This document shows, piece after piece, positions 37,883 to 58,138 of a stretch of 64,000 nucleotides of DNA. The notes beneath the pieces were generated by a model. The model worked only from the letters and a program-made list of their open reading frames with translations. It was not told where the DNA came from and did not search any database. Source of the DNA: Acidobacteriota bacterium (GTDB lineage Bacteria; Acidobacteriota; UBA890; WLXD01); NCBI GenBank assembly GCA_965248695.1, contig CBDFKD010000002.1:2656001-2720000 (forward strand), read 5' to 3'. Numbering within the stretch: position 1 is the first letter of the stretch; every line of letters starts with the position of its first letter. The translations under genes and the position numbers were made by a program.

Positions 37883-40078
37883 TTGAGACATCACGCCACC
37901 GGCACTGCGCGCCTGGCCGTCCGGCTCCTGGGCGCGCTGCTGCTCAGCTACCTGGCCGCCGGCGAGTCACTGGCGCAGAGCGCGGCCGATGTGGTGCCCG
38001 TCGACGGCGGCGCTCCGGCATGCGGGTTGGCCGTCGTGCTCAGCGGCGGCGGAGCACGAGGGATCGCGCACCTGGGCGTGCTGGAGGTGCTCGAAGAGAA
38101 CGGCATCCGCCCGGATTGCGTCGTCGGGGCGAGCATGGGAGCCGTGATCGGCTCCCTGTATGCCACCGGCCACTCGCTTGCCGCCATCGAGGTACTGCTT
38201 TCGGGGCTGAGCTGGCGCACCGTCTACATCGATTCCCACAACCGCCGGCTGCAACCGATCCTGCATCGGCTCGAGCGGCAGCGGTCTGGGCTCCGCCTCG
38301 GCCTCACCGCCGACGGGGTGCGGACGCCGCGCGGCCTGCTCAGCGACACGATGGTGAACCGCTTGCTGATCGAGCACCTGACGCCGGCCAACTTCGATGC
38401 CGGCCGGCGGTTCGATGCGCTCGCGATTCCGTTCCGCACGCTGGGAACCGATCTGCTCTCCGGAGAGCGCGTGGCACTCGCAGCCGGCGACCTGGCGCGC
38501 GCGGTTCGCGCCAGCATGTCGGTGCCGCTGGCGTACGCACCGGTGCCGTGGGAGGAGATGCTGCTGGTAGATGGGGGCCTGGCCGACAACGTCCCGGTGA
38601 GTCTGGCGACCGAGATGAGCGCCGAGTTCACGCTCGCAGTCGACGCCTCGACTCCGATCGACGCCGACGTCAACCCGGACCTGTTCGGCGTCACCGAGCG
38701 CGTCATCGATCTGCTCTTCGCCGAGACCAACAGTCGCTATGCGCAGGCGGCCGATCTGACCATCGTTCCTGACCTCGCCGGCCACAGCTTTGGCGACTAT
38801 TCACACATCGACGAGCTCATCGACGCCGGACGACACGCGGCCGAGGCGATGCTCGATCGTATTCCGGAGCGATTCAAGGGGCGTCAGCCGGAGATACGGA
38901 GTCCGGCCGATGAGCATATCTTCGGGCCGCGAGTGGTGCACGAAGTAGGCGTCAGCGGCAACCAGTACCTGTCCGACGAGGTCATCCTGCGCGAGTTCCG
39001 GGCGCGCGTCGGGAATCCGTTCGACTGGGATCAAACCCTCGCGAACCTCGATCATCTCTACGCTTCGGGGTTGCTGCAGAGCGCCTGGCTCGATCTGGCT
39101 CCGGTAGGAAACGACGGCATCCGGCTGCTGCTGTACGTGCAGGAGGAGTACCGACACACGCTCGATCTGGGCCTGGCGTACCAGAGCGACGATCAGGCAC
39201 AGGCGATGGTGCGGTTGGAGACTCGCGACCTACTGGGCGCCGGCGAGCGACTCCAGTTCGGCGGTGCGGCCAGCGCCAAGGATCTGTTGCTGGGAGTGCG
39301 ACTCCACGGTGAACAGCTTCTCGGAGCGCATGTCGGGTACCAGGTGGATGTCGAGCTACACCACGAGAGGCCCAAGGTCTTCGAGTCCGGACAGCATGTT
39401 TCGCGTGCCGAGTTCCGGCGGCGGCACGCGGCCCTGCGAGCGAATCTGCCGTTCGGCTTCAACCATCTCTTGCAGCTCGGAGTGCGCGCCGGCGAGGTGG
39501 AGACGGTCTCACGACTCGGAATTCCGCTGGACGCGGACACCCGCCAGCATCGCGTGCTGACCGCTAGCTATGTTTGGGACAACCTCAGCTCGCTAGCCGT
39601 GCCATCGCACGGGGCTCGCTACACGGTGCAAGCCGAGCGAAACTTCGAGGCGCTGGGTGGCTCCTTCCCGTACTGGCGAGTCCGCGTCGACGGCACCAGC
39701 GCGGCACAGCTCGGGAGGCTCAACCTCACGGGTCGGATTCTCTACGGCTACTCGTCGTCCTCGCTACCGGTATACGACCAGTTCCGGGTCGGCGGGCCCG
39801 AGCTAGTGCCGGGATTGGCGCGCGAGGAGCTCTGGGGAAACCAGGCGCTGGCGGCCTCGGCACAGGTGGGGCTCGATTTCGCCTCCGTGGCGCGCCTCTA
39901 CGCCCGGGTCGGCGTCGGTGGCGTCTGGGAGCACCAGGCCGATATCAGTCTGGACACGGCAATCGTCGGCGCCGGGCTGGGCCTCACGGTGACCACTCCC
40001 ATCGGGCCGCTGCAGCTCGACTACGGCTGGGCGGAGGAGAATCGAAACCGCCTCTACGTCGCCATCGGCTGGCAATAG
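37883..40078 (+). CDS. Patatin-like phospholipase with POTRA and beta-barrel (PlpD/type Vd-like)
   Basis: SGGGARG, GASMG, DGG, POTRA-like VSGNQYLSDEVILRE, barrel end TPIGPLQLDYG..YVAIGWQ. Confidence 0.9.
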   Translation: MRHHATGTARLAVRLLGALLLSYLAAGESLAQSAADVVPVDGGAPACGLAVVLSGGGARGIAHLGVLEVLEENGIRPDCVVGASMGAVIGSLYATGHSLAAIEVLLSGLSWRTVYIDSHNRRLQPILHRLERQRSGLRLGLTADGVRTPRGLLSDTMVNRLLIEHLTPANFDAGRRFDALAIPFRTLGTDLLSGERVALAAGDLARAVRASMSVPLAYAPVPWEEMLLVDGGLADNVPVSLATEMSAEFTLAVDASTPIDADVNPDLFGVTERVIDLLFAETNSRYAQAADLTIVPDLAGHSFGDYSHIDELIDAGRHAAEAMLDRIPERFKGRQPEIRSPADEHIFGPRVVHEVGVSGNQYLSDEVILREFRARVGNPFDWDQTLANLDHLYASGLLQSAWLDLAPVGNDGIRLLLYVQEEYRHTLDLGLAYQSDDQAQAMVRLETRDLLGAGERLQFGGAASAKDLLLGVRLHGEQLLGAHVGYQVDVELHHERPKVFESGQHVSRAEFRRRHAALRANLPFGFNHLLQLGVRAGEVETVSRLGIPLDADTRQHRVLTASYVWDNLSSLAVPSHGARYTVQAERNFEALGGSFPYWRVRVDGTSAAQLGRLNLTGRILYGYSSSSLPVYDQFRVGGPELVPGLAREELWGNQALAASAQVGLDFASVARLYARVGVGGVWEHQADISLDTAIVGAGLGLTVTTPIGPLQLDYGWAEENRNRLYVAIGWQ

Positions 40079-40132: not shown

Positions 40133-43100
40133 TCAGCTCGAGCCCGCCTGACGTAAGTGCTCCCGGATCGCTTCAATGAAGCGCGGCACCGTATCCCAGA
40201 CATCGCCGACGATCGGGTGCACGAACGGTTTCGGCCGCTGCTCGTGGAGCTTCATCAACGGCGCGTCGGGATCGACGTTGAACGACAGGATCACGGCGCG
40301 GTCGCCAATGTAGTCGACGTGTTGGGGGGCGCCAGACACCGCCAGGGCGATGATCAGCTTCGGGTTCACGGACACGCCGGTTTGCCCGATCTGACGATCG
40401 GCGGGAAGCAACTCGAGGTCTTGAGTCACCTTGCGTGTCGCCCCGACCATCACGCTGGACAGTCCCATCTCGTCGACAAGCAGCTGCCGGAGCGGCTCGG
40501 CGAGCTTGTCGATGCCCTCGCGGCCACCGGCTCCATAGCCGAAATCGATAATGATGTCAGCTTCCTGGAGCGTCTCCTGGGCGCCCGCGACGCTCGCCGC
40601 GAGTAGCGCCACCGGGTCCCGGCTGGCGTCGTAGGTCAACAGCGGCGTCCACAGGTAAACCTCCGGCTCTGACCGCTCTCGGCCGGCGCCGCGGCCGCCG
40701 TTCAGATCGAGCTCCACGCTCTGTCCGAGGGTCAGTACGCGCAGGCCGCCGTCCAGCGGCAGCTCGGCCTCGGCGCTAGCCGCACCGGCGTAGATTTGCG
40801 TCCCGACGCGCGCGCACTCACCCCCATTGGAGATGGAATCGACGTTGTGCCAGCTCCAGCAGCGACCTGCCTCCGTGCGCGCCACACCTCCGGCGACGAA
40901 GCGGGCGAACAGCTGTTTCGCCCAGCTCCCCGCAAGTAGCCATCGGGGCTCGCCGCGGTACATGGCCCAGAACTCCTCGAGCCACTCGAGATGACCCCGG
41001 GCGCTGAATCGCTCGGCGCTCGGAAGCTCGACCACATACAACCCCCGGGGGCTGCCACAAGCCAGCGTCGCCCCGGCAATGGCAGCGGCGGACACCTGAC
41101 CGAGATCGACCGGAACGACCACATCGAGCGCCATCCCGAGGCTGTCCGCCAGCCTGCCCGCCGTGCGCAGGTCGGCGCTCGCTCTGGTAGCCAGCTCGGC
41201 CCGGGCTGGCGGTAGAACGAGCACGCAGCATTGGCCAGGGGTATCGGGCTGCTCGCCCAGCGTCAGCAGGCGATGTTCATACGCAGCGACGGCCTCGGCG
41301 GAGGCGCCATCGAACTCCGCCACATCCATCAACACATCGACCGCGGCCTCAGGCGAGGCAACGCGGGAGATCTCGGCGCCGACACTCGCCACGCGCCGGC
41401 GCCGGTGTCGGACTCGGATTGCCGCCTGTCCTCCGGCGAGCTCGGCAATCGGAATGCGCTCGATCTCGACAGTGGATGCTCGCAGCCAGGACCGCAGGTC
41501 GGGAGCCGCGGTCCACGCGGCGCCCTGGCCCTTGGTGACAACACACGGCGTCCGAACCGAAAGCTGCTGACCAGCCCAGGACGCTGCGGTCATGTCGAGC
41601 ACGGACGCGGTTACGTCGCCCCAGCGGAGGTCTTCGATGTCGCTGTACACCTCGTGGCCAAGCGCCGCAGCCAGATAGGCGGGCACCGCTCCTTGACCGG
41701 TGTCTGCGGCACCCGTGCCACACAACACGAGATCAGGGTTCCGCCGGCGCAGGGCAGCGACAATGACACGGGCCACGAGCTCGCCGTCGTGCCGGCTCGG
41801 GACGGCGGCCCCCTCCACACCTGCAACCGTGTAGGCACTCACCTGGACGTGCGCCGGATCACGCTGCTTGAGTGCCATCGCTGCGGCCAGCGCCGCTTCA
41901 TCGGCCGGATTCGTACAGCGCAATGGCTCGGCGAACTCGTCGCCTGTGAGCCGGGGTTGTGGCGCCACGGCGGGAACCGGCTTGAGCAACACTGCGATCT
42001 CGACGGTGCGTTCGAGGTCGGCCTGGCGCCGGCGCTCCCTGAGCTGCTCGGGCACCAGACCCCAGCCCTCGGTCGCGGCGCCGGCCTCCTCCAGGGACTG
42101 TGCCCCGAGCTGTGTCTCCGGCGAGTAGCGGCCCTCTTCGAGGTACGCCAGCGCGATCTCGTAGCGGCGCTCGAGCATCGCGATGCTGGACAGGGCCCGC
42201 CGCACGTACAGCCGCGACACGCGCTCCAGACGTTCAGCGTAGGCGTCCGGTACCTGATGCCGTGAGGTCCACTCCAGGCGATAGAGCACCGCGTCGATCA
42301 CCTTGGTGAGCCCGGCGATCTCCGCCAGGCGGAAGAAGCACGGCTGCATTCCGACGTTGGCCCAGACGAGCTGACCGAAGCGTTCGACCGCGGCGTCGAC
42401 ATGATGCAGCAACGACTGCCGCGCCCGCTCGAGCTCGCCGACGAGCTCCGGGTAGGCGAGCTCGGGTTCGTCACCGGCGCCCGAGGTGTCGCGCTTCCAG
42501 GCCGGAAGAACCCGCTGGACGAGGTCCTTCAGCAGCAGGAACCGCTGCACCTCGTTGGTTCCTTCGTAGATGGTGAGCACGCGCGCATCGCGGCGCGTTT
42601 TCTCCACCCGGTGCAGCCAGGTCTGGCCTTCGAGCCCGCGCGCTCTCTCCATCCAGTCGATGCAATCGTGTACGGACTCGGTGCCGTAGTACTTGCCGAT
42701 CGCCGACTCCGTGCGCACGGACACGGTTCGTTTGTTGTCGAGCAATCCGATCATCTCGTAGGTGACCGATCCGGTTGCCACGGTCTCCTCGGCGACGCGC
42801 CCCAGCCAGAATCGCTCCAGCGGCCGCGCCGGTTGGCGCGGCGAATACTCGAAGCCGGCAGCCACCTCGCCGCGCAGATAGGGGATCGCGTCGTCAGCCA
42901 GCTCAGCGATGGTCGAGTGCGTCGTCACCGCCAGACCGGCTCTCCCTGTATTCAGCGTCTCGAGCGCGTTGACTTGCCCACGACCGCGGAAGCCGATGAT
43001 CGCTTCGTGGGGCACACGGACGTTGTTGAGCGACAACTCGTTGGTCGGTGAGCCTCGCTGGCCGAGCTTCTCCTCGTCGGCGCCCACCACCAGCCCCTCG

Positions 43101-46100
43101 GCGTGTCGATCGACCATGAACCCGGTTACGCTCTCGGGCTCGGTAAGTGCGTACAGCGCCATGCAGTGGCAGAAGCGGCCGTTCGTGATCCACATCTTGG
43201 CGCCGTTGAGCACCCAGTACTCGTAGAAGACGTCGTCCGAGGCATCGACGCGCAGCTGACCGATGTCGCTGAAGGGCACCTTGCGGTCGCCGTGCATGTA
43301 GAAGCGCATGCGCTCCGGCGTGTCCTTGTCGTAGTCGTACTCGGAATGATCGATGACAGCCGGTTCGGCGTCATCGGCGAAGCGATAGAGCAGCCGCCGA
43401 CCGTCGTAGTCATGCTCGAGGCGATCGGCATCGAGCAGATTGCGGCGCTCCTGCTCGCCCGGTTCATCGAGCCAGAACCACAGCACGCCATCGGCGTCCC
43501 GGTGCACGCGGCGGCGCTCGCCGCGGGCCGTCGTCTTGACCCCGCCGGAGTCGGATCCCGCCGTCGGCTCGGTGAGAGCGAACGCCGAGATGTAGCCGGC
43601 CGAGATGGTCTCGAGGAATTGCTCGTGGGCGCGCTGACGGCGCGGTAGCTCGTCGAGCCGTTGATCGATGGCAATGAGAAGATCGTCGATCAGCGTGCGC
43701 GCCTGGCAAACGTGTGCGCGGAGATCCTCGAGATCGCCCTGTTGTTGCGCGAGCGATGCCGCCTTGAAAGCGCGCAGGAAGCCACCGCCGATGTACTTCA
43801 GTACCATCGACCCGGCGACACGTTCCTTGACCAGCGCTCCAACCTCGGCCATTGCGGCCGCGATCGCGGCGACGCCGGGCCGCTTGAGCATCTTCAGCAA
43901 GCGGTCCAGCCCATCGCGAATGTCGCCGAGCACGTCCGGGTGTTCGCGCACCCGCTGGAGATCGGCGATCGCGCGCGGCAAGTCCTGGTACAGCCCGATG
44001 AGCGTCGGTGTGGTGCCGATGCTCGTGTTGCCCATGATCGCCAGCGACAGCGCCGCGTCGCCGTAGCGACCTATGAGGTCACACAGGATGTAGTACTCGG
44101 CCTTCGAGACCCCCTCGCCGCCAAGTCGGGTCTCGATCGGCATGCGCATGAAGCCGCGTCGGACCATGAAGTCGAGGTCCTCGTCAGGAATCAGGTGAAG
44201 CTTCTCGAGATAGCGGCCGTAGGGCAGCCCGTCGAACCTCGGGGCGACGAACCGGGCGCGCAGCTCGGCTTCGAGCGCCTCCCTATGGTCGGCGAGGCGC
44301 GTGTCGTTGGCCACGATCTCGGGCACACAGCGCGCCGATGTCGCATCGAAGCCGGCGTGCAGCCACTCGCCTGACCGGTGTGTCCGATCGACAGTGCACA
44401 CGCTGTCGTATGGTTCTGCGTCCGGGATCGGAGGCGCGATGAGCTCGCCGTCGGTAAGCAGCTCGTCGCCTGCCGCCAGCGTCGACGCAGCCAGGCCTGC
44501 CGCCTCGATCCGGGCGGGTATCTCGGCGCTGAGCTTATCGAGCACCAGGCGTGTGGCCTCGACCATCGATTCCATCGGCAGGCCGGCATCGATGCGCCGC
44601 ATCGTCCGTATCAACAGGCTGCGGGCGGCAAGCAGCTGGATCACCATTCCGCCCACGGCATGCTTCACCAGGTCCCCGGCAAAGGCATCGATTCCGCCCG
44701 ACCAGTTCTCGACCTGCTGGCTGGCCGCCTGGTAACGAGCCGCTGGCTGGCGAAGCAACGGGTGCTTGCTGCTGCGCTCCATCCACTGCCGCTCGGCATC
44801 ACCAGACGGGATCAGGGGACCCCCTTTTCGAGCGGCCGTGAGTCGGCGGCGTCCGACCTCGACGCGCAGCGCGTCGTCGTGCCCCAGCAGGAATCGGAAG
44901 ACAGCGCTGTCGCGGTAGTACTTGGCGATATCGTCATCCTCCGAGAACGCCGTACCGCCAAACAACTGGCCGGTGTTGTAGCTGAAGGAGCCGATCCCGG
45001 GGCCGAACGCTTCGCTGGCCACCACCTTGCGCACCGCAATCCCGGTCCAGCCGTCGCCACCGCCCGGATCGACCAGTGAGACCGATTCCAGCACGAACCG
45101 GCGCGCTTCCATCTCGGCGAGCATCTGCTTGACGGCGCCGAACTTGGCGATCGTGTCACGGCCGGCCTCGTCCTCGAACGTCCCGGGAAACTGCACCCGC
45201 CCGGAGGCGTGGTCGCGGGCGCGCTGCAGCAAGTACCGGCCGGATCCGCGCACGCTGGCCAGGTAACCACCCAGCGCCACGCTGATCACCGGCGCCCAGG
45301 ATTCCCCGGCCGCCGGATCCTCGAGCGAGACGTCGTCGGCCGCCGCCGACAGATCGACGACGCGCTCTGCGGGCACTCTGATTCCGGCACCACGGAGCCG
45401 ACGGATACGCGCACCTACGAGCCCCACCGCACCGACGTCCTCGCATGCCAGACCCGCATCGTCGGCATCCACGAGGAAGCCCTGGGCACCGACGACAACC
45501 AGGTATCGATCTGCGAGTGCGGTCGGAACGAAGTCCGAGCACACGTCGAGCTCGTAGTCGCCGCTCTCGAGCAGCCGCACAGCACGCACCCCACCATGGA
45601 CGGTCGCCACCAGCGTCGACGCCGTCTCGAGCTCCGCGTCGGGAGCACCGGCCAGGGTCAGCAGATCGATCGCCAGCAGATGCGATGCGGCCACCGTCGC
45701 CATGGCCGGGTCGGTGGCCGCGAGCTCTTCGAGCAGCACATCACTGCGCCCGTACCCGGCAGCGTAGGGGCGCGCGGCGGCGAGCTGTGTCCTGAGCCAA
45801 TCCGACTGCGGCGCCGACAGCGGCTCGGCCTTCTCCAGAGCCCGCACCGCGTGACTGTCGAACAACCGCGCGCATCCATCCCGTACGATCTCGCGCCACG
45901 ACTCGAAGACGCACGGTTGGGCCTCGAGCTGCCGCCACTCAGTGGCCGAGAGCTCGGCGACAGGCTCGCGCTCGGCGCCTGCGATGGCACCCTCGCCCTC
46001 ATCGATTGCACCGCACACCGCCAACACCGCAGCGAAGTGATGCTCCTCCAGCTGCCGCGCCAGGACGTCGGCCCAGAAGAACCGTCGCGCTGCAACGTGC

Positions 46101-48750
46101 CCCCGCATCTGCTCCAGGCGCTCAGCGGCATCGGCCCAGACCGGGTCCAGCAACTTCGGCACGATCCCGGCGCCCGCCGGCTCGACTCCCCCGTCCCAGG
46201 CCTGACCGGCATCGGCGAACGCGTCGCGCGCTGCGGCCAGCCATGCGCCCAGATGCTTCCGTCGTGCCTCGTCAAGCGCCAGGGGCGAACGCGCGAGGTC
46301 GTCTCGATAGGCGCGTAGTGCCACACGCGAGCGCTCCAGTTGCGCCGAAACACGGCGGCGAACGGGGGCCGGGGGAAGGCCGTCGGCGTTGTTCCTAACG
46401 GCTTCCGCCAGCTCAGACTGGAAACCCGGTTGTGAGCCCAGGCGCGGCTGTGGCTCGGGACGATCGACGAGGTAAGCGTGCAGCTCCTGTTGCGCCGGCG
46501 TATAGGTCTGGTAGATGAGGCGTTGCTGCGTGGCGCGGCTCCAGTGCACGTCGTCAGTGGCTCGCCAGCAAGTCTCGCACTTGATGCAGTTGTCGAAGTT
46601 GACCACCACACCCGGCTGCCCCGCCGGGTTGCGTCGCACCTCGTACACCTTCGCCGGACAGATGCTCCACAGGGCCGACGACGACAGGCTGGACCGTTTT
46701 GCGATGTCCGTCGGCCACATCACCTTGATATGGGAGTGTTCACCCGCCTGGTAGGTGATGGTGCTGAGCTTCGCCTCGTACGTCGTGGTGATGGCGACGC
46801 GATGATCGTCGAGACGTATGCGCTCTCGATTCTCGTCCAGCAGGCGCGCAATCGGCTGCTCGGTGAAGCGTCTTGGCTCCCAGCGCAGCACCGCGCGCTG
46901 GAACCATTCGGTAACCGCCTGCTTGGCGCTGGTGGCCGCAAAGGCGAGGCCGACAGCACCGGCCACGACGAAGTCCCATAGCGAGACGCAGCCGGCGATA
47001 TGGCGCGCCGATGCCGCCAGCTTGTCGGCCAGGTCGGTGTCGTCGTTGGCGTAGACTTCGCTGAACGCGCTCGCCACCGCACCGCCGAAGCGCTTCCAGT
47101 ACCACTTGAACAGCCAGGGCGCCCGGCCTGACGACTCGCCTCCCGCCATGACGCGGTACACAGCACGCAGGCGGGATCCGTTCGGCCCCGGCGCTTCGGC
47201 AACTCCGGCGCCTGCGGCGGCTTCATCAACTTCGGAGACGCCCACGCCGACGCCCGAGCCGGCAGGTACCAGAGCCCCGACGGTGTTCCACAGCACACGC
47301 AGCAGGGTGGCCGGGGTCATCACGGAGCGCGCCAGCGCGCCGACGCCGAGGGCGCGGAACAGGGCTCGACTGTCCCCGACGATCGATCCGGAACCGGCTG
47401 AAGCAACGTGGCGCGCCAGCCGCACGAGGCCCCAGTAACGCGTCCACGTCCCCGAGTCTGGCCGCGACAGGATGTAGGCGGCGTTGTTCACCAGATCGAG
47501 TTGCCGCTCGAAGAAGAACTGCGTCCGCTCGACGTACGCCGGCCAGTCGCGCAGATGCTGTACGTTGCGGTAGTAGTGACTCGACTGCACCGTTTTCAGG
47601 TAGGTGCTGCGCAGAGCCTGCTCCGTGAACGGCGACGCTGACCCACCGGCGCGACGCCCTGGCCGCCCCGAATCGGCGGCGATCTGGCGCACTGCGCGGG
47701 CGAAGTACAATCCCATGGCGGTGGCCGGGCCGGTGAAGTTCGGATAGGGGAAGTCGAGCCCGATGCCGCTGGCAGCGCCGCCGATTGCGAGGCCGTCGTC
47801 GACCAGGCGCGGGATTTCCCGGAGGCCGCCGCCGCGGATGATCTTGGCGCCATAGGAGGTGAGCTCGCCACCGTCGATCATCCGGGCGATCTCCGGCAGT
47901 CCCTTGAACCACTCCACCAGGATGTTGTGATCGCCGTCGAACTGCTGCCGCAGGTTGTCGAGCGGCAACACGAACCCCAACGACAGGCTGTCGCGGTTGG
48001 TGTAGACGAAGCCGCCCATGTTGAGCCGCGCCGTGCGGCCCTTGCGCGTCGCGTTGCGCAAGAGCATCTCGAGAGCCATTCCCTCGCCCGGCGCCAGCCC
48101 GAAGCGCTGCTCGATCACTTCCTCGGGCAGCGAGATCACCTCCTTGACCCCCTGCAAGAAGTGCGGCGCGCCCGCGGCATGGTCGGTCGTCACCGGCTGC
48201 TCGTAACCTTCCTGGGTGACCACTCGTAACCTTCCTGGGTGACCAGATGCGAGGCGTCGCCTTCGGCCAGGAACACGACGTCGGCGTACGCCGGCCCGCG
48301 CTCGGTTTGCACGCCAATGACCTGGCCTCGATGTCGGATCAGGCTCTGTACGGTGGTCTCGCAGGCGAGCATGACGCCGTGCTCGCGCGTTACCTCGGCC
48401 AGGCAGCGGTCGTAGACGGGCCGCAGGACCGTGTAACAGGACCCGAACGCGTCGGGAGACCGCAGGCTGGCGCCGACCAGGCTGTGACCGTTGTACAAAT
48501 AGGCGCCGCGCTCCACGAGTCGACGCTCGTACGGCGCCGCGGCGACGATGTCACCACCGAACGCGTCCGGATGCTCGAGGTTCTCGGAAAAGTAGACCGC
48601 GCCCGACCAGTTCTCGGCCCCGGGGAAAATACCCGCCTCGCACAGCAGTACGGAGAACCCGGCTCTGCCGAGGGCCATCGCGGCGGTCGCACCCGCGGGG
48701 CCTGCCCCCACGACGATTACGTCGAAGCGATCGGGGCCCATCATGGTCAT
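40133..48750 (-). CDS. Giant fusion: ETF-QO/FixC flavoprotein, 4Fe-4S, degenerate ACAD, ACAD, EtfB, EtfA; frameshifted by a 23-bp duplication
   Basis: VIVVGAGPAG (~48700), GVKEVI, YGAKII; ICPAKVY..NCIKCETC (~46660-46570); GQLFGG..YYRD (~44950); AFALTEPTAGSD, LNGAKMWITNG, KLGQRGS, IYEGTNEVQR (43585-42540); LLKPVP..NPADEAAL..DTGQG (~41990-41690); GATRKV..QIGQTG..VSGAPQH (~40440-40320). Confidence 0.88.
48200..48245. repeat. Perfect 23-bp tandem duplication that causes the frameshift
   Basis: CTCGTAACCTTCCTGGGTGACCA twice (48200-48222, 48223-48245). Removing one copy gives a single frame of 2865 codons including the stop. Confidence 0.95.
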
Positions 48751-53975: not shown

Positions 53976-56900
53976 CTAGCGCGCCAGGCGGTCCAGGAGG
54001 CGCTCCAGGAGCCGACCAAGCGGTCCCGCAACCGGGTGATCGACTGGCCTGTCGGTGGCGTATGCCGCGCCGGCCCCGGCCTCGGACTCGGAACGGGGCT
54101 CGTACACCTCGTAGCCTCTCACGCTCCGCGATGGTGCCCCGCCCACCGGCATGCGGTACGCCTCATCCCGATCCGACCACCGATGCAGCACCACATCCCC
54201 GCCGCGACGAACGAAGCGCCGCAGTGCCCTCTGTGCCGCCTCCGAGCTCACCGCGCTCACCTGGCCGAGATCGTCCCCGGCGCTGGCCGTGGGAATGAGC
54301 ACGATCTGCGTGCCTTCCGGAATGCCGTCGCGCATATCCTGTGGCGGATGCACGAACAGGCTCACGCCTCGGATGTAGCCACGCGCCTGCAGCGACTGCT
54401 CCACTGTCGCCTCACCCCACGGCTCGTACGCCTTGTAGATCCGCGCCCTCGGTACCGTGGGCAACGTGCCAGCCTCCGCATCCACCACCACGCGCCGGGC
54501 CGGCTCGGTGATGTAGTGCGGACCTTCCGGCATGTTGGCCGCCCGGGCCTCGGCGCTCCGCGTTGCCGGCACCTGGATGCACGCCATCACCGGGCCCGAT
54601 GCCCCCGCATCGTTGAACGACTGGAGCGTGTAGCAGTTGACCGCCCCTGCCACTGCCTCGGTGTCCAGATACATCTCCCGGTCCGCCGCCAGCATCCACA
54701 CCACATCGTCCCGAACCAGCACGTAGCCGGTCTCGTTGTTCGCCTGGTCGCGCCACTTCACCCTCACCGCACCGGAGTTGCGCACCGCCAGCTGCAGCCG
54801 CTTCGGTGGTGCCGGTCGGTTCGCCGCCCCGGCTCCCAGCTGCACCACGTTGTGGAACCGGTTGCCGAAGCGGATCTTTGTGCGCCTCTTTGGACCGTCG
54901 TTGCTGTCCACCGTGTACAGAACCTGTCCGTCCCCGGTGCGGGCATTGAGGATCTGCACCCACCCTGCGTCCGGGCTCGGGGTCCAGTCGCACCCGGCCA
55001 GCGTGTCCACCCGGAAGCTGCCGGCACCTCCGGCAGGCGTGAAGCTCTGGGTGATCATCGAGGGGGCGAACGTGCACCGGGCTGCCCTCTGGTTCACGGT
55101 GAACGCCTCGCCGGCGATCGTTGCCGTGCCACGTCGCGCCACGCTCCTGGGATTCTTCTGCACCGCCAGCGTCACCCTTCCCGGACCGGTCGCATCGATC
55201 GCCCGTGCCGCACTCAGCACCTGGATCCAGCTTCTGTTGCTGCTCGCACTCCAGGGGCAGTTGTTGCCGTTGGAGCTCACCGCCACCGATACGCTCGTTG
55301 CCTGGAAGCTCACGCTCGCGGTTGTGGAGCCGATTCCGGTGCTACATGCCACCACCGTGATCGTCGCCGTGGCGGTGTTGGACGCCACTCCAGCAGACAC
55401 CGCCTGATAGGTGAACGAGTCGGTGCCGGTGAACGATCCCGTCGGGGTATAGGTGAACGTGCCGTCGGAGCTCAGGCTCAGGTTGCCGTTGGCAGTGCTC
55501 GTCACCAGCGATGCCGTCAAGCCGATGCCCGAGTCGTTGTCCAGCACGCCGTTCTGTACCAGCGGATCGAATTGCACCGTCGAGTAGGCATCGTTGCTCG
55601 CCACCGGCGACACCGAGATCGTTACCGTGGCGTTGTTGGAGTCGTCCAACCCGTCGTTGGCTTTGTAGGTGAACGCGTCAGTACCGGAAAACCCCGTGTT
55701 CGGCGTGTACGTGAAGCCGCCATCGGTACCCAGCCCCAGGGTGCCGTTGCTCGGGCCACCTCCCACGAGCAGTGCGGTGAGCGTGTCGCCTTCCGAGTCC
55801 GTATCGTTGGCCAGCACTCCGGTCGCTGCCGGCACCGTCAGCGCCGTGTTCGCCGTGGCCGTGTAGGTGTCGTTGGTCGCCACCGGGGCGCTGTTGGGCA
55901 CCACCGTGAGCGTTACCGTGGTGGTATCGGAGTCGTCGATACCGTCGTTGGCCTTGTAGGTGAACGTATCGGTGCCGAAGAAGCGGGTGGTCTGATTGCC
56001 ACCGGCGGTAAACCCCGCGTTGGGGGTATAGGTGAACGATCCGTCGTCGGTCAACGCCAGCATCCCGTTGGCCGGGCCGGACACGAGGTTGGCGGTCAGC
56101 GCGTCGCCATCGGCGTCGGTGTCGTTGGCCAGCACACCTGTGTTCACACCAACGGTCAACGTCGTGGCCTCGCGGGTCGTATAGCTGTCCGGGTCGGCCA
56201 CCGGGGCATTGTTAGACGCGACCCTGATCGTCACCGTCGTGGTAACGGAGTCGTCGGCGCCGTCGTTGGCCCTGTACGTGAACGTATCGGTGCCCAAGAA
56301 ACGGCTGGTCTCATTGCCACCGGCGGCAAACCCGGCGTCGGGGGTATAGCTCATCGCGCCGTCGGCGGCCAACACCAGGTTCCCGTTGATCGGGCCGGAC
56401 ACGAGCTTGGCGGTCAACGAGTCGCCGTCGGCGTCGGTGTCGTTGGCCAGCACACCCGTGCTCGCGGCAACCGCCAGCGGCGTGTTCACCCGGGTGCTAT
56501 AGCTGTCCGGGTTGGCCACTGGAGCGGTGTTGCCCGGGACGGCTACAGGCGGTCCCTGGTAGCGCAGTACCTGCTGCGTGAACAGGCTCGACACGTACAG
56601 GTTGTTGTAGGGACCGAACGCCAGCCCGGTAGGCGCGCTCAGCCCACCAGAGCCCGCCGCCACGAACGCGTCGATGAACGCATCCGTCGTTCCGTTGTAG
56701 CGCAGTACCTGGCCCGTCGTTCCGTTGTAGCGCAGTACTTGGTCCGTAAGTGCGCTCGACACGTACAGGTTGTTGTCGGGACCGAACACCAGTCCAACCG
56801 GGCCGTTCAGCCCACCAGAACCCGCCGCCACGAACACGTCGATGAACGCCCCCGTCGCTCCGTTGTAGCGCAGTACCTGGTTCGTGGAGAAGCTCGACAC

Positions 56901-57286
56901 GTACAGGTTGCCGTCGGGACCGAATACCAGCCCTCGGGGCAAATCCAGCCCACCGGAGCCCGCCGCCACGAACACGTCGATGAACGCCCCCGTCGTTCCG
57001 TTGTAGCGCAGTACCTGGTCCGTAAGTGCGCTCGACACGTACAGGTTGTTGTCGGGACCGAACGCCAGCCCGCCAGGCGAAGCCAGCCCACCGGAGCCCG
57101 CCGCCACGAACACGCCGATGAACAGCCCCGTCGCTCCGTTGTAGCGCAGTACCTCGTTCGTGTCGCCGCTCGACACGTACAGGTTGCCGTCGGGACCGAA
57201 CGCCAGCCCTCGAGGCAAATCCAGCCCACCGGAGGCCGCCGTCACGAACGCGTCGATGAACGCCCCCGTCGTTCCGTTGTAGCGCA
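53976..57286 (-). pseudogene. Large surface protein (NHL-like repeats, four Ig-like/Big_9 repeats, two BACON-like domains, FN3-like), 5'-truncated by IS3
   Basis: 46-aa repeats (GLAFGPDGNLYVSS..VLRYNG); PVA..D.Y..GVLANDTD.DGD.L..G.FTYTP..G.D.FTY repeats; C.W..S...WI..N....R.G domains. No signal peptide; the apparent ATG is formed at the IS junction. Confidence 0.85.
56560..57286 (-). repeat. 138-bp coding tandem repeats (about five) with an internal 30-bp duplication
   Basis: TAGCGCA recurs with 138-bp spacing (e.g. 57142 and 57280); QVLRYNGTT is duplicated near 56690-56745. Confidence 0.88.
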
Positions 57287-58138
57287 TGACCTGCCCCCCA
57301 ATAATCGGGCCAGTCTGAGAGTTAGGATTTGAGGCTCTCAGGATGGCTCGGGAAGGGGGAAGAATGGGCGCGGAAGCGGTACACTGTAGAGCAGATCATC
57401 GCCAAGCTCAGGGAGGCAGAGATCGAGCTAGCGAAAGGGGCCAAGACACCGGAGGCATGCCGCAAGCTGGGAATCAGCGAGAACACGTATTACCGGTGGC
57501 GCAAGGAGTACGGTGGACTGAGGGTGGATCAGGCACGGCGACTCAAGGAGCTGGAGCGGGAAAACGGCCGGCTCAAGAAGTTGCTGGCGGAGACGATGCT
57601 CGACAACGCCATCCTCAAAGAGGTTTCGTCGGGAAACTTCTGAGCCCGGCACGACGGAGCCGGGCAGTGCACCACGCACAGCAGTCGTTGGGTGTGTCCG
57701 AGAGGCGAGCCTGCAGAGTACTGGGCCAGGTGCGCTCGACGCAGCAGTATCGGCCCAAGGTGCCGCAGGAGGAGAAGGCACTGGTGGAGCGGATGACCCA
57801 GCTGGCGACGCAGTACGGGCGCTATGGGTACCGGCGGATCACGGCGCTGTTGGTACGTGAGGGGTGGCGAGTGAATCACAAGAGGGTCGAACGGTTATGG
57901 CGTCGTGAGGGGCTGAAGGTACCGAAAAAGCAGCCCAAGCGCGGACGCTGGTGGCGCAATGATGGATCGTGCGTGCGGCTGCGGCCGGAGAGGAAAGATC
58001 ACGTCTGGGCCTATGACTTCGTGCACGAACGAACTCACGACGGGCGAGCGTTTCGTCTACTGACGATCGTGGATGAGTACACGAGAGAGTGCTTGGCAAT
58101 CGATGTAGCACGCAGGCTCAACTCCGAGAAAGCAGCCC
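57287..58138 (+). mobile_element. IS3-family element, copy 1, 3'-truncated
   Basis: Left end TGACCTGCCCCCCAATAAT; orfA ([28 protein letters not shown], stop 57643; extra G after its ATG); GGGAAAC -1 frameshift site at 57631; orfB YGYRRI..WAYDF..DEYTREC, cut before the remaining DDE residues. Confidence 0.92.

Follow-up and report, generated by a model that had tools for sequence, protein, structure and literature searches.

A conserved family of giant single-chain flavoproteins with FixC-like, acyl-CoA dehydrogenase and electron-transfer flavoprotein modules: candidate acyl-CoA:menaquinone oxidoreductases in Acidobacteriota and other bacterial phyla

Acyl-CoA dehydrogenases (ACADs), the electron-transfer flavoprotein (ETF) subunits EtfA and EtfB, and ETF-quinone oxidoreductase (ETF-QO) are normally separate proteins, and the electron-transfer complexes that form between ACAD and ETF and between ETF and ETF-QO are transient and hard to capture. 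Here we describe a gene from an Acidobacteriota bacterium (assembly GCA_965248695.1) that joins modules of all these proteins in a single giant polypeptide. It lies on the minus strand at positions 40133-48750 of the stretch analyzed, a 64,000-nt segment of contig CBDFKD010000002.1 (positions 2,656,001 to 2,720,000; hereafter the window, from whose first letter coordinates are counted).

The mitochondrial-type chain, in which electrons pass from ACAD through ETF and ETF-QO to quinone, is built from four protein families that all recur in the giant protein, in a matching logical order. The Cys pattern of ETF-QO with its one [4Fe-4S] cluster is shared, and the N-terminal 741 residues of a structural model align to porcine ETF-QO. 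The giant protein differs in being one polypeptide, in having a quinone reductase nearer to FixC with a helical insert of ~190 aa, in AMP-site motifs that are not conserved and in menaquinone as its likely quinone; furthermore, mitochondrial-type ACADs are homo-oligomers, whereas its ACAD appears to be paired with a dead copy of itself. With the FixABCX/EtfABCX complexes (Thermotoga maritima, 7koe; the rhizobial and Azotobacter Fix systems) it shares the fold and sequence of FixC, a FixX-like iron-sulfur (FeS) domain following FixC, and an EtfB-EtfA pair. In contrast to these complexes, it adds the ACAD pair, has four FeS Cys residues only, lacks both the DGDTAQ zipper and the conserved Arg of bifurcating ETFs, and presents the modules in the order C-X-(ACAD)2-B-A within one chain.

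In Escherichia coli, the ACAD-type reductases CaiA and YdiO are served by Fix-like ETF and FixCX proteins (FixABCX and YdiQRST, respectively), which are encoded by separate genes of an operon and act in the reductive direction. Going by their general description, these systems bring together the same five families as the giant protein, whose N-terminal part matches best the NCBIfam models of FixC and YdiS. The heteromeric alpha2beta2 steroid ACADs of actinobacteria combine an active with an inactive ACAD-like partner and have one FAD site per pair. The giant protein resembles them in this pairing, and the steroid ACAD 6wy8_A is among the fold matches of its first, degenerate ACAD module (ACAD'; Z 29.9), but in contrast to these enzymes and to VLCAD and ACAD9, it carries both halves within one chain that also includes an ETF and a quinone reductase. 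The SaETF of Sulfolobus acidocaldarius is described as a bifurcating, fused EtfB-EtfA monomer of ~600 aa with two FAD and separate partner genes (PMC12042025); EtfB precedes EtfA in one chain as in the giant protein, whose ETF is instead embedded in 2,860 aa and has a degenerate second nucleotide site. The mycobacterial ETF:menaquinone oxidoreductase EtfD, of which homologues are reported in Acidobacteriota and Gemmatimonadota, solves the same problem by linking beta-oxidation to the menaquinone pool, but it belongs to an unrelated family with heme b, HdrB-like clusters and a true transmembrane domain (PMC13083937).

We read the gene as a member of a conserved family of single-chain flavoproteins of ~2,500-3,050 aa that would function as membrane-attached acyl-CoA:menaquinone oxidoreductases with a built-in ETF, a reading to which we assign a probability of roughly 0.58. 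According to this proposal, acyl-CoA would be dehydrogenated at a single active ACAD site, whose FAD pocket would be completed by the inactive ACAD' packed against it as an intramolecular pseudo-dimer. Electrons would then move one by one onto the FAD in the EtfA-like head domain, continue through the single [4Fe-4S] cluster and the FixC-like FAD, and finally reach menaquinone at the membrane, to which a conserved hydrophobic helix would attach the giant protein. The EtfB-like module and the base formed by EtfA domain I would serve as a scaffold only; with a degenerate site for AMP or a bifurcating FAD, neither NADH nor ferredoxin would be involved, and no free ETF pool would be needed. The gene copy in the window is broken by a recent, polymorphic 23-bp duplication, with an allele free of it in the same sample. 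The features of the gene are as follows.

40133..48750, minus strand: whole gene; 2,864 aa without one 23-bp copy, split into 186 + 2,696 aa as assembled
48200..48245, minus strand: 23-bp tandem duplication (Tandem Repeats Finder score 92; run contigs; comparison with the relative L011)
47345..48750, minus strand: FixC/ETF-QO-like FAD domain with GxGxxG Rossmann motif, putative quinone-reducing flavin (Pfam, NCBIfam, fold match)
46778..47344, minus strand: family-specific helical insert with PWLFKWYWKRFG and the putative membrane anchor at 46934-46990 (hydropathy, fold model)
46541..46768, minus strand: FixX/ETF-QO-type [4Fe-4S] domain, CPAKVYE...NCIKCETCW (Pfam Fer4_ETF_QO, conserved Cys)
45902..46540, minus strand: helical linker, including a 27-bp deletion near 46000 (helices 787-913 in the model of a relative)
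44828..45901, minus strand: degenerate ACAD (ACAD') with complete fold (fold match, homologue tally)
44327..44827, minus strand: helical region after ACAD' (model helices 368-484; partly covered by the alignments with VLCAD and ACAD9)
42491..44326, minus strand: predicted catalytic ACAD with two family-specific insertions (Pfam, PDB matches; FALTEPTAGSD, MWITNG, IYEGTNEVQ)
42017..42490, minus strand: helical extension and linker between ACAD and the EtfB-like module (model and conservation)
41234..42016, minus strand: EtfB-like module with a 72-bp deletion at ~41807 (Pfam ETF)
40136..41233, minus strand: EtfA-like module, domain I divergent, domain II (40316-40570) a conserved FAD-binding head (Pfam ETF_alpha, 1.3e-15)

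Open reading frame (ORF) translations, the DNA itself and a repeat finder all bear out the coordinates and the description of the gene given in an initial annotation made from the sequence of the window. It is one gene, interrupted by a perfect tandem duplication of 23 bp at 48200-48245, so that the assembled copy consists of two overlapping ORFs of 186 aa (48190..48750, minus strand) and 2,696 aa (40133..48223, minus strand). The two 23-mers are identical and adjacent (Tandem Repeats Finder: period 23, 2.0 copies, 100% match), and the duplication shifts the frame inside the FixC-like domain: the upstream ORF reads ...HLVTQEGYE before running out of frame, and the long ORF starts with VVTQEGYEQP.... 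When one of the 23-bp copies is dropped, 8,618 - 23 = 8,595 nt remain, corresponding to 2,864 codons plus stop. The 2,696 codons previously described as one uninterrupted frame are indeed free of stops, with a third-position GC content (GC3) of 0.82 that is similar to that of the neighboring genes, and since relatives also keep the whole frame open, the fusion is far more than a chance ORF.

We searched 41 related genomes for this architecture. Near-full-length matches within open frames of 2,855-2,959 aa were found in eight of them; four other genomes gave a match in two or three pieces within one open frame of 2,895-3,053 aa, and in several fragmented related genomes the match was cut by contig ends. 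These frames, from relatives of the same order, run without stops between the modules, in line with the earlier statement that the fusion is no translation artefact. Matches at the level of ACADs only were obtained from three genomes of the same order (72-83% complete) and from 14 of 15 genomes of other families of the phylum, the remaining one giving no match. A query restricted to the linker and ACAD' detected this region in 10 of 121 genomes of the phylum, namely the window's own, all four of one family and all five of a second one; the 111 searched genomes from other families gave no such match. One genome of the same genus (G004) carries two full-length paralogues, at C15:996964-1005153 and C14:524689-532935, with 73% and 53% identity to the window protein. 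A copy in a genome of the same order (G012, C5:128820-137081) has one TAA inside the match, possibly reflecting a second broken copy or a sequencing error.

Unstudied database homologues, which the initial annotation had been unable to exclude, are numerous: in a large protein database, 447 proteins matched at E<=0.001 among 8,000 scored candidates. Among the best 120 homologues, 116 have 2,409-3,036 aa and the same Pfam set, one is the window protein, and three are shorter than 2,400 aa. They carry automatic names such as 'acyl-CoA dehydrogenase family protein', 'FAD-binding protein' or 'electron transfer flavoprotein-quinone oxidoreductase', and where a source is named, it is a metagenome-assembled genome (MAG) of the Acidobacteriota, the Planctomycetes/Gemmataceae (Planctomycetota), the Verrucomicrobiae (Verrucomicrobiota) or the Gemmatimonadota; the loci in the related genomes likewise stem from uncultured MAGs. 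Against representatives clustered at 50% identity, the query with the linker and ACAD' matched 102 clusters at E<=0.001, of which 25 reached E<=1e-30. In long proteins these matches fall at matching positions; the short proteins that match may be gene fragments or split forms. Conservation spans the whole length of the protein, including linkers of unassigned role. Motifs were tallied in 116 homologues, and an alignment of 27 rows was used for the fold predictions.

Within the family, the proteins P0048-P0122 (~2,470-2,590 aa) form a shorter subfamily that comes from Verrucomicrobiae where named. Its one aligned member, P0050, lacks most of the beta-domain of ACAD' and the entire EtfB zipper stretch, and Verrucomicrobiae forms of ~2,480-2,510 aa have lost much of the ACAD' beta-domain. 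In this shorter subfamily, the decay of modules seems to have gone one step further.

From the N- to the C-terminus, the modules are a FixC/ETF-QO-like FAD domain, a hydrophobic helix, a one-cluster 4Fe-4S domain, a degenerate ACAD, a catalytic ACAD, an EtfB-like and an EtfA-like module. The six modules originally named are matched by Pfam and NCBIfam families as well as by solved structures, and the domain order agrees with the first description both in the window and in relatives. Pfam recognizes FAD_oxidored, DAO and Pyr_redox_2 on the N-terminal 186-aa piece, and on the long ORF Fer4_ETF_QO (aa 486-561), Acyl-CoA_dh_N (1336-1406), Acyl-CoA_dh_M (1668-1735), Acyl-CoA_dh_1 (1747-1898, in two stretches), ETF (2143-2236) and ETF_alpha (2552-2636), with a second, weaker match to an ACAD C-domain upstream at ~1019-1126 aa (E 2.6e-8). 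The same order is present in P0004 (an intact, 89%-identical relative of 2,897 aa), P0040 (Planctomycetes) and P0050 (Verrucomicrobiae). Best sequence matches in the PDB are CarC (6fah_C, 3.2e-34), T. maritima FixC (7koe_C, 1.4e-31) and Clostridium Bcd (5ol2_C, 8.8e-28), together with numerous ordinary ACADs and, for EtfA, the chains of 5ol2 and 7koe.

The first ~410 aa are nearest to NCBIfam models of the FixC/YdiS type (PRK10015, 164.8 bits with a cut-off of 466; PRK10157 FixC, 148.8 bits with a cut-off of 610), so that this part is a distant relative of the curated FixC families and not an equivalog. The VVGAGPAG motif (GxGxxG) lies in the 186-aa ORF, and its glycines are kept in 113 of the 116 homologues, the other three being gapped at the N-terminus. 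Since the window copy is frameshifted here, residues 1-960 of the 89%-identical relative were modeled in its place (mean pLDDT 80.5, pTM 0.85). Residues 5-461 of this model superimpose on T. maritima FixC (7koe_C) with a Z of 35.3 and an rmsd of 2.1 A over 422 of 438 residues, and residues 1-741, which extend through the FeS domain, match porcine ETF-QO (2gmh_B) with a Z of 28.3 and an rmsd of 3.5 A over 475 aa. The FeS domain is recognized by Fer4_ETF_QO with 26.1 bits (cut-off 24), and its four Cys residues (CPAxVY...NCxKCxxC) are kept in all 116 homologues. The two extra Cys residues of Sinorhizobium fredii FixX (CPAKC..., ...CRVLC) are absent from all 12 aligned family members. ETF-QO has one 4Fe-4S cluster, and because there are only four Cys residues and the two further ones of FixX are absent, one cluster is expected in the giant protein as well.

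The FixC fold is separated from the FeS domain by the family-specific helical insert of ~190 aa, which contains the aromatic stretch PWLFKWYWKRFG in the window. The earlier mention of hydrophobic segments at this site holds for one segment of ~20 aa (46934-46990) and not for several. Its position is kept in 11 of 11 proteins but its sequence is not, with Kyte-Doolittle peaks of 1.83-2.53, and it sits in a long helix (583-613) of the relative's model (pLDDT ~88-91). A hydrophobic helix that is kept in position and variable in sequence would fit a lipid-exposed membrane anchor, which may either span the membrane or only dip into it.

The initial annotation had recorded two ACAD modules; both have the ACAD fold, but only the second can be catalytic. 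A single-chain model of the two (window residues 775-1965; mean pLDDT 84.6, pTM 0.84) places VLCAD and ACAD9 at the top of a Foldseek search, with VLCAD 2uxw aligned over model residues 1-476. ACAD' (model residues 1-358) has a full ACAD fold (Z 31-32.6 and rmsd ~2.8 A over ~323 aa against many ACADs). Motifs were compared in an alignment of the two modules with one ordinary ACAD that the genome also encodes, and were then tallied across the homologues. In the second ACAD, which shows Pfam N, M and C matches, a three-domain architecture and the corresponding secondary structure in the model, the Glu of IYEGTNEVQ is present in 116 of 116 homologues, and TEPxAGSD and WIT are essentially invariant; from MCAD, we take the YEGT Glu to be the catalytic base. 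This module lacks the RxxFG and QxxGGxG motifs. ACAD' has no equivalents of TEPxxGSD, WIT or IYEGT; at the position aligned to the YEGT Glu, which is distinct from the alternative base position of the IVD/LCAD type, its five commonest residues are Phe (51), His (43), Tyr (16), Arg (2) and Ser (2), with no Glu among these five. RxQF and GQxxGG, by contrast, are each kept in 116 of 116 homologues of ACAD', and motifs of this kind presumably contact the FAD of the partner subunit, as in MCAD. As judged from these motifs, the two ACAD modules have decayed in complementary ways.

When ACAD' and ACAD were given to a complex predictor as separate chains, they were placed in contact with a median ipSAE of 0.74, compared with 0.00 for the best control; this mark is reached by 58 of 80 solved complexes and by 2 of 110 mismatched pairs. 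The runs agreed in at least 87% of the contacts with a partner pLDDT of at least 85, and the confident interface takes in the GQxxGG and SEDD region of ACAD' and the WIT and IYEGT regions of the active ACAD. The prediction shows a likeness to the often-solved ACAD dimer and is not proof of the contact; as a model, it would agree with an intramolecular pair that has a single FAD and a single active site, as in the heteromeric steroid ACADs.

At the C-terminal end, domain II of EtfA, the FAD head, is among the best-conserved parts of the protein (GATRKVTQDLxLLPxDRQIGQTG...SGAPQH...FNxDPxAPLM, with SGAPQH in 115 of 116 homologues); the corresponding Pfam family PF00766 scores 57.6 bits (cut-off 27), and the EtfB fold (PF01012) scores 50.1-67.1 bits in P0004, P0040 and P0050. 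The sites that distinguish ETF classes behave differently. In a published survey, the EtfB 'zipper' reads DGDTAQ in 216 bifurcating and DDDSNQ in 449 canonical ETFs, its first Asp being 100% conserved, and an Arg of EtfA domain I is kept in 214/216 and 447/449 of them, respectively (PMC8958531). We aligned the ETF modules with the nif-linked FixA and FixB of S. fredii and with the two EtfBA pairs of the genome itself. At the zipper position the Acidobacteriota members have AADTGQG, one Planctomycetes member SPGSGRG and the Gemmatimonadota members HEGPSGG, and the Verrucomicrobiae proteins are without this stretch; the DGDTAQ-type motif of bifurcating ETFs is thus not conserved in the giant family. 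The zipper columns are gapped in 44-49 of the 116 homologues and variable in the rest, the Asp is kept in 36, and the domain-I Arg, which contacts the bifurcating flavin or AMP, is found in 14. We infer that the nucleotide site of domains I and III, whether for AMP or for a bifurcating FAD, is not a conserved feature of the giant family; its degenerate motifs argue against electron bifurcation, and the EtfB module would be a scaffold instead of part of a bifurcating ETF. The sequences further suggest that covalent fusion may have replaced the nucleotide as the 'glue' of the ETF, a step that we infer rather than observe.

As to the quinone, the genome has two matches over cut-off to PF02621, a family of the futalosine pathway of menaquinone synthesis. 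A profile search of the genome found no MenB and no UbiG over cut-off, 14 MenB matches (crotonase-type) all lying below it. Together these results make menaquinone the likely quinone.

Several points weigh against a membrane-attached acyl-CoA:menaquinone oxidoreductase. The cofactor path and its direction are drawn from homology, and so is the activity itself, from acyl-CoA to quinone or the reverse, which should accordingly be read as putative. The enoyl-/acyl-CoA couple has a potential of about -10 mV. A value of -74 mV is given for menaquinone in PMC10734219. With these potentials, which are partly textbook values, electrons moving from acyl-CoA to menaquinone would have to go slightly uphill in the standard state, and the reverse is thermodynamically easier. 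By sequence, the modules find their best matches in bifurcating systems (CarC, T. maritima FixC, Clostridium Bcd/Etf). The topology would be awkward with only one central transmembrane helix, as it would put the FixC domain and the rest of the protein on opposite sides of the membrane, which seems unlikely. No beta-oxidation genes are adjacent to the giant gene. Two final points concern the copy in the window: it has lost 24 aa of EtfB, with a conserved element, in a deletion shared by none of 10 aligned relatives, and its frameshift is carried by the assembly and by the contigs of two of four sequencing runs.

The state of this copy was examined in four public runs that contain the stretch (X1-X4), all from one sample and one study, by comparing their contigs with the window over 47700-48750. 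The contigs of X1 (depth 9.5) and X2 (depth 5.1) match the window exactly, including the duplication, and may be its own source; those of X3 (depth 3.05) and X4 (depth 11.6) leave out exactly 23 bases at 48200. The duplication is polymorphic in the source sample, both forms occurring in contigs, which do not show how frequent each form is. In L011, the closest relative with 90.1% nucleotide identity across the gene, the 23 bp are present once. A programmed frameshift was rejected as an explanation, since the duplication is absent from L011 and from the X3 and X4 contigs. Besides the duplication, just two indels separate the window copy from L011, both of them in-frame deletions in the window copy. 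One, of 27 bp near 46000, falls within a poorly conserved linker. The other, of 72 bp at ~41807, removes 24 residues of the EtfB-like module, including an 'LRxALAxGAD' element that is present in 10 of 10 aligned relatives and also in EtfB and FixA proteins that stand alone; with the Pfam ETF model, the window copy scores 27.1 bits (cut-off 26.7) compared with 50.1 in an intact relative. Its flanks share the short similarity GCNGCCGT, which suggests replication slippage, and the 23-bp duplication points the same way. We also polarized amino acid changes with two outgroups, leaving 173 differences that could not be polarized. There were 51 derived changes on the window branch and 48 on that of the 89%-identical relative, of which 4 and 2, respectively, affect sites conserved in at least 90% of the homologues. 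Because the derived changes are balanced between the branches, there is no sign of long relaxed selection, and any decay must be very recent; on this comparison of sequences, the lesions of the window copy are recent.

These data bear on a separate alternative, that the gene is dead or dying in this genome, a very recent pseudogene of an otherwise functional family. The frameshift and the loss of the EtfB element speak for it, and the genome would have substitutes for the giant protein, namely two EtfB-EtfA pairs and one FixC-like gene, all of them stand-alone (G000:C2:5355447-5356660, C2:4278434-4279650 and C2:5385289-5385747). The duplication-free contigs from the same sample, the stop-free state of the remaining 2,696 codons, the even distribution of derived changes and the maintenance of the frame by the 72-bp deletion tell against it, and we lean against decay while regarding it as a serious contender.

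With the same architecture, electrons could also flow in the opposite direction, the protein being a menaquinol-dependent reductase of enoyl-CoA or other 2-enoyl thioesters that uses unsaturated acyl-CoA as an electron sink, in the manner of E. coli CaiA with FixABCX or YdiO with YdiQRST. The best scores of the FixC-like part are to the E. coli-type FixC/YdiS models, the ACAD module matches the acryloyl-CoA reductase AcrC and the caffeyl-CoA reductase CarC, and the organism appears to make menaquinone and not ubiquinone, with menaquinol to enoyl-CoA being the downhill direction by the above potentials. Against this, the sequence itself holds nothing that tells the direction, and matches of the ACAD module to ordinary dehydrogenases (SCAD, VLCAD, FadE) are equally strong. 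Moreover, the phyla carrying the giant family are mostly aerobic heterotrophs. Mycobacteria are reported to couple acyl-CoA oxidation to menaquinone reduction through EtfD, so that the forward direction works with menaquinone (PMC13083937). We consider the reductase unlikely as compared with the acyl-CoA:menaquinone oxidoreductase.

Very improbable in our view is an electron-bifurcating or -confurcating enzyme that couples NADH and ferredoxin to enoyl-CoA and/or quinone in the manner of Bcd-EtfAB, CarCDE or FixABCX. Its closest solved relatives by sequence do come from bifurcating complexes (6fah_C, 7koe_C, 5ol2), and the ...DT.Q... of the Acidobacteriota members is nearer to the bifurcating DGDTAQ than to the canonical DDDSNQ. 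Yet the family has largely given up the zipper and the domain-I Arg, it has four Cys residues for one cluster where the aligned stretch of S. fredii FixX has six, and no ferredoxin or flavodoxin gene is adjacent. That assembly or gene calling artificially joined separate genes, for which nothing but the general risk of metagenome assemblies speaks, is refuted by the open frames of relatives and the long database homologues, the identical continuous frame recurring in many independent assemblies and phyla, and its chance is negligible.

Beyond the acyl-CoA:menaquinone oxidoreductase as such, one might see in the family ETF systems of a mechanistic class of their own, each a 'beta-oxidation complex' in one membrane-anchored chain, in which the EtfA head swings over an AMP-free base between the built-in one-site ACAD pseudo-dimer and the quinone reductase, and in which tethering allows bacteria that depend on menaquinone to run a near-equilibrium acyl-CoA/menaquinone step in either direction without a diffusible ETF pool; this extension is tentative, and we hold it to be rather doubtful. 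Full-text literature searches, outside of which most subscription journals lie, returned no paper describing the six-module fusion, in agreement with the earlier statement that no characterized protein with all modules was known. All parts belong to known families. New features are their fusion, the predicted ACAD pseudo-dimer with one active site, the degenerate nucleotide site of the ETF and the inserted putative anchor. A report from 2025 presents the fusion of EtfB and EtfA alone as a new finding (PMC12042025).

A natural protein with all partners in one chain would offer a ready object for cryo-electron microscopy and for following the kinetics of every step between substrate and quinone, as well as a natural template for engineered modules of fatty-acid oxidation or reverse beta-oxidation. 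The fusion permits complementary decay of a duplicated ACAD and may make the structural nucleotide of the ETF dispensable. Soil and water commonly harbor Acidobacteriota, Planctomycetota, Verrucomicrobiota and Gemmatimonadota, and in these phyla the giant proteins would represent an overlooked route from lipid catabolism to menaquinone respiration.

The giant gene stands alone, with a convergent gene for a patatin-Omp85 protein downstream and a divergent amidohydrolase gene upstream. Both neighbors are syntenic in Acidobacteriota relatives, but at four loci that are more distant neither was seen next to the gene. Full-length homologues of the same architecture exist as the initial annotation envisaged, and conserved neighbors accompany them in Acidobacteriota relatives only; for this reason, operon context was rejected as a guide to the substrate. 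The downstream neighbor (37883-40078, plus strand) encodes a protein of 731 aa that combines a patatin-like phospholipase with an Omp85-type barrel, and it is kept beside the giant gene down to ~50% identity; a loose link to lipid catabolism is possible. Elsewhere in the window, an unrelated gene (53976-57287, minus strand) encodes a protein of 1,103 aa with four Big_9/cadherin-like repeats and an NHL repeat.

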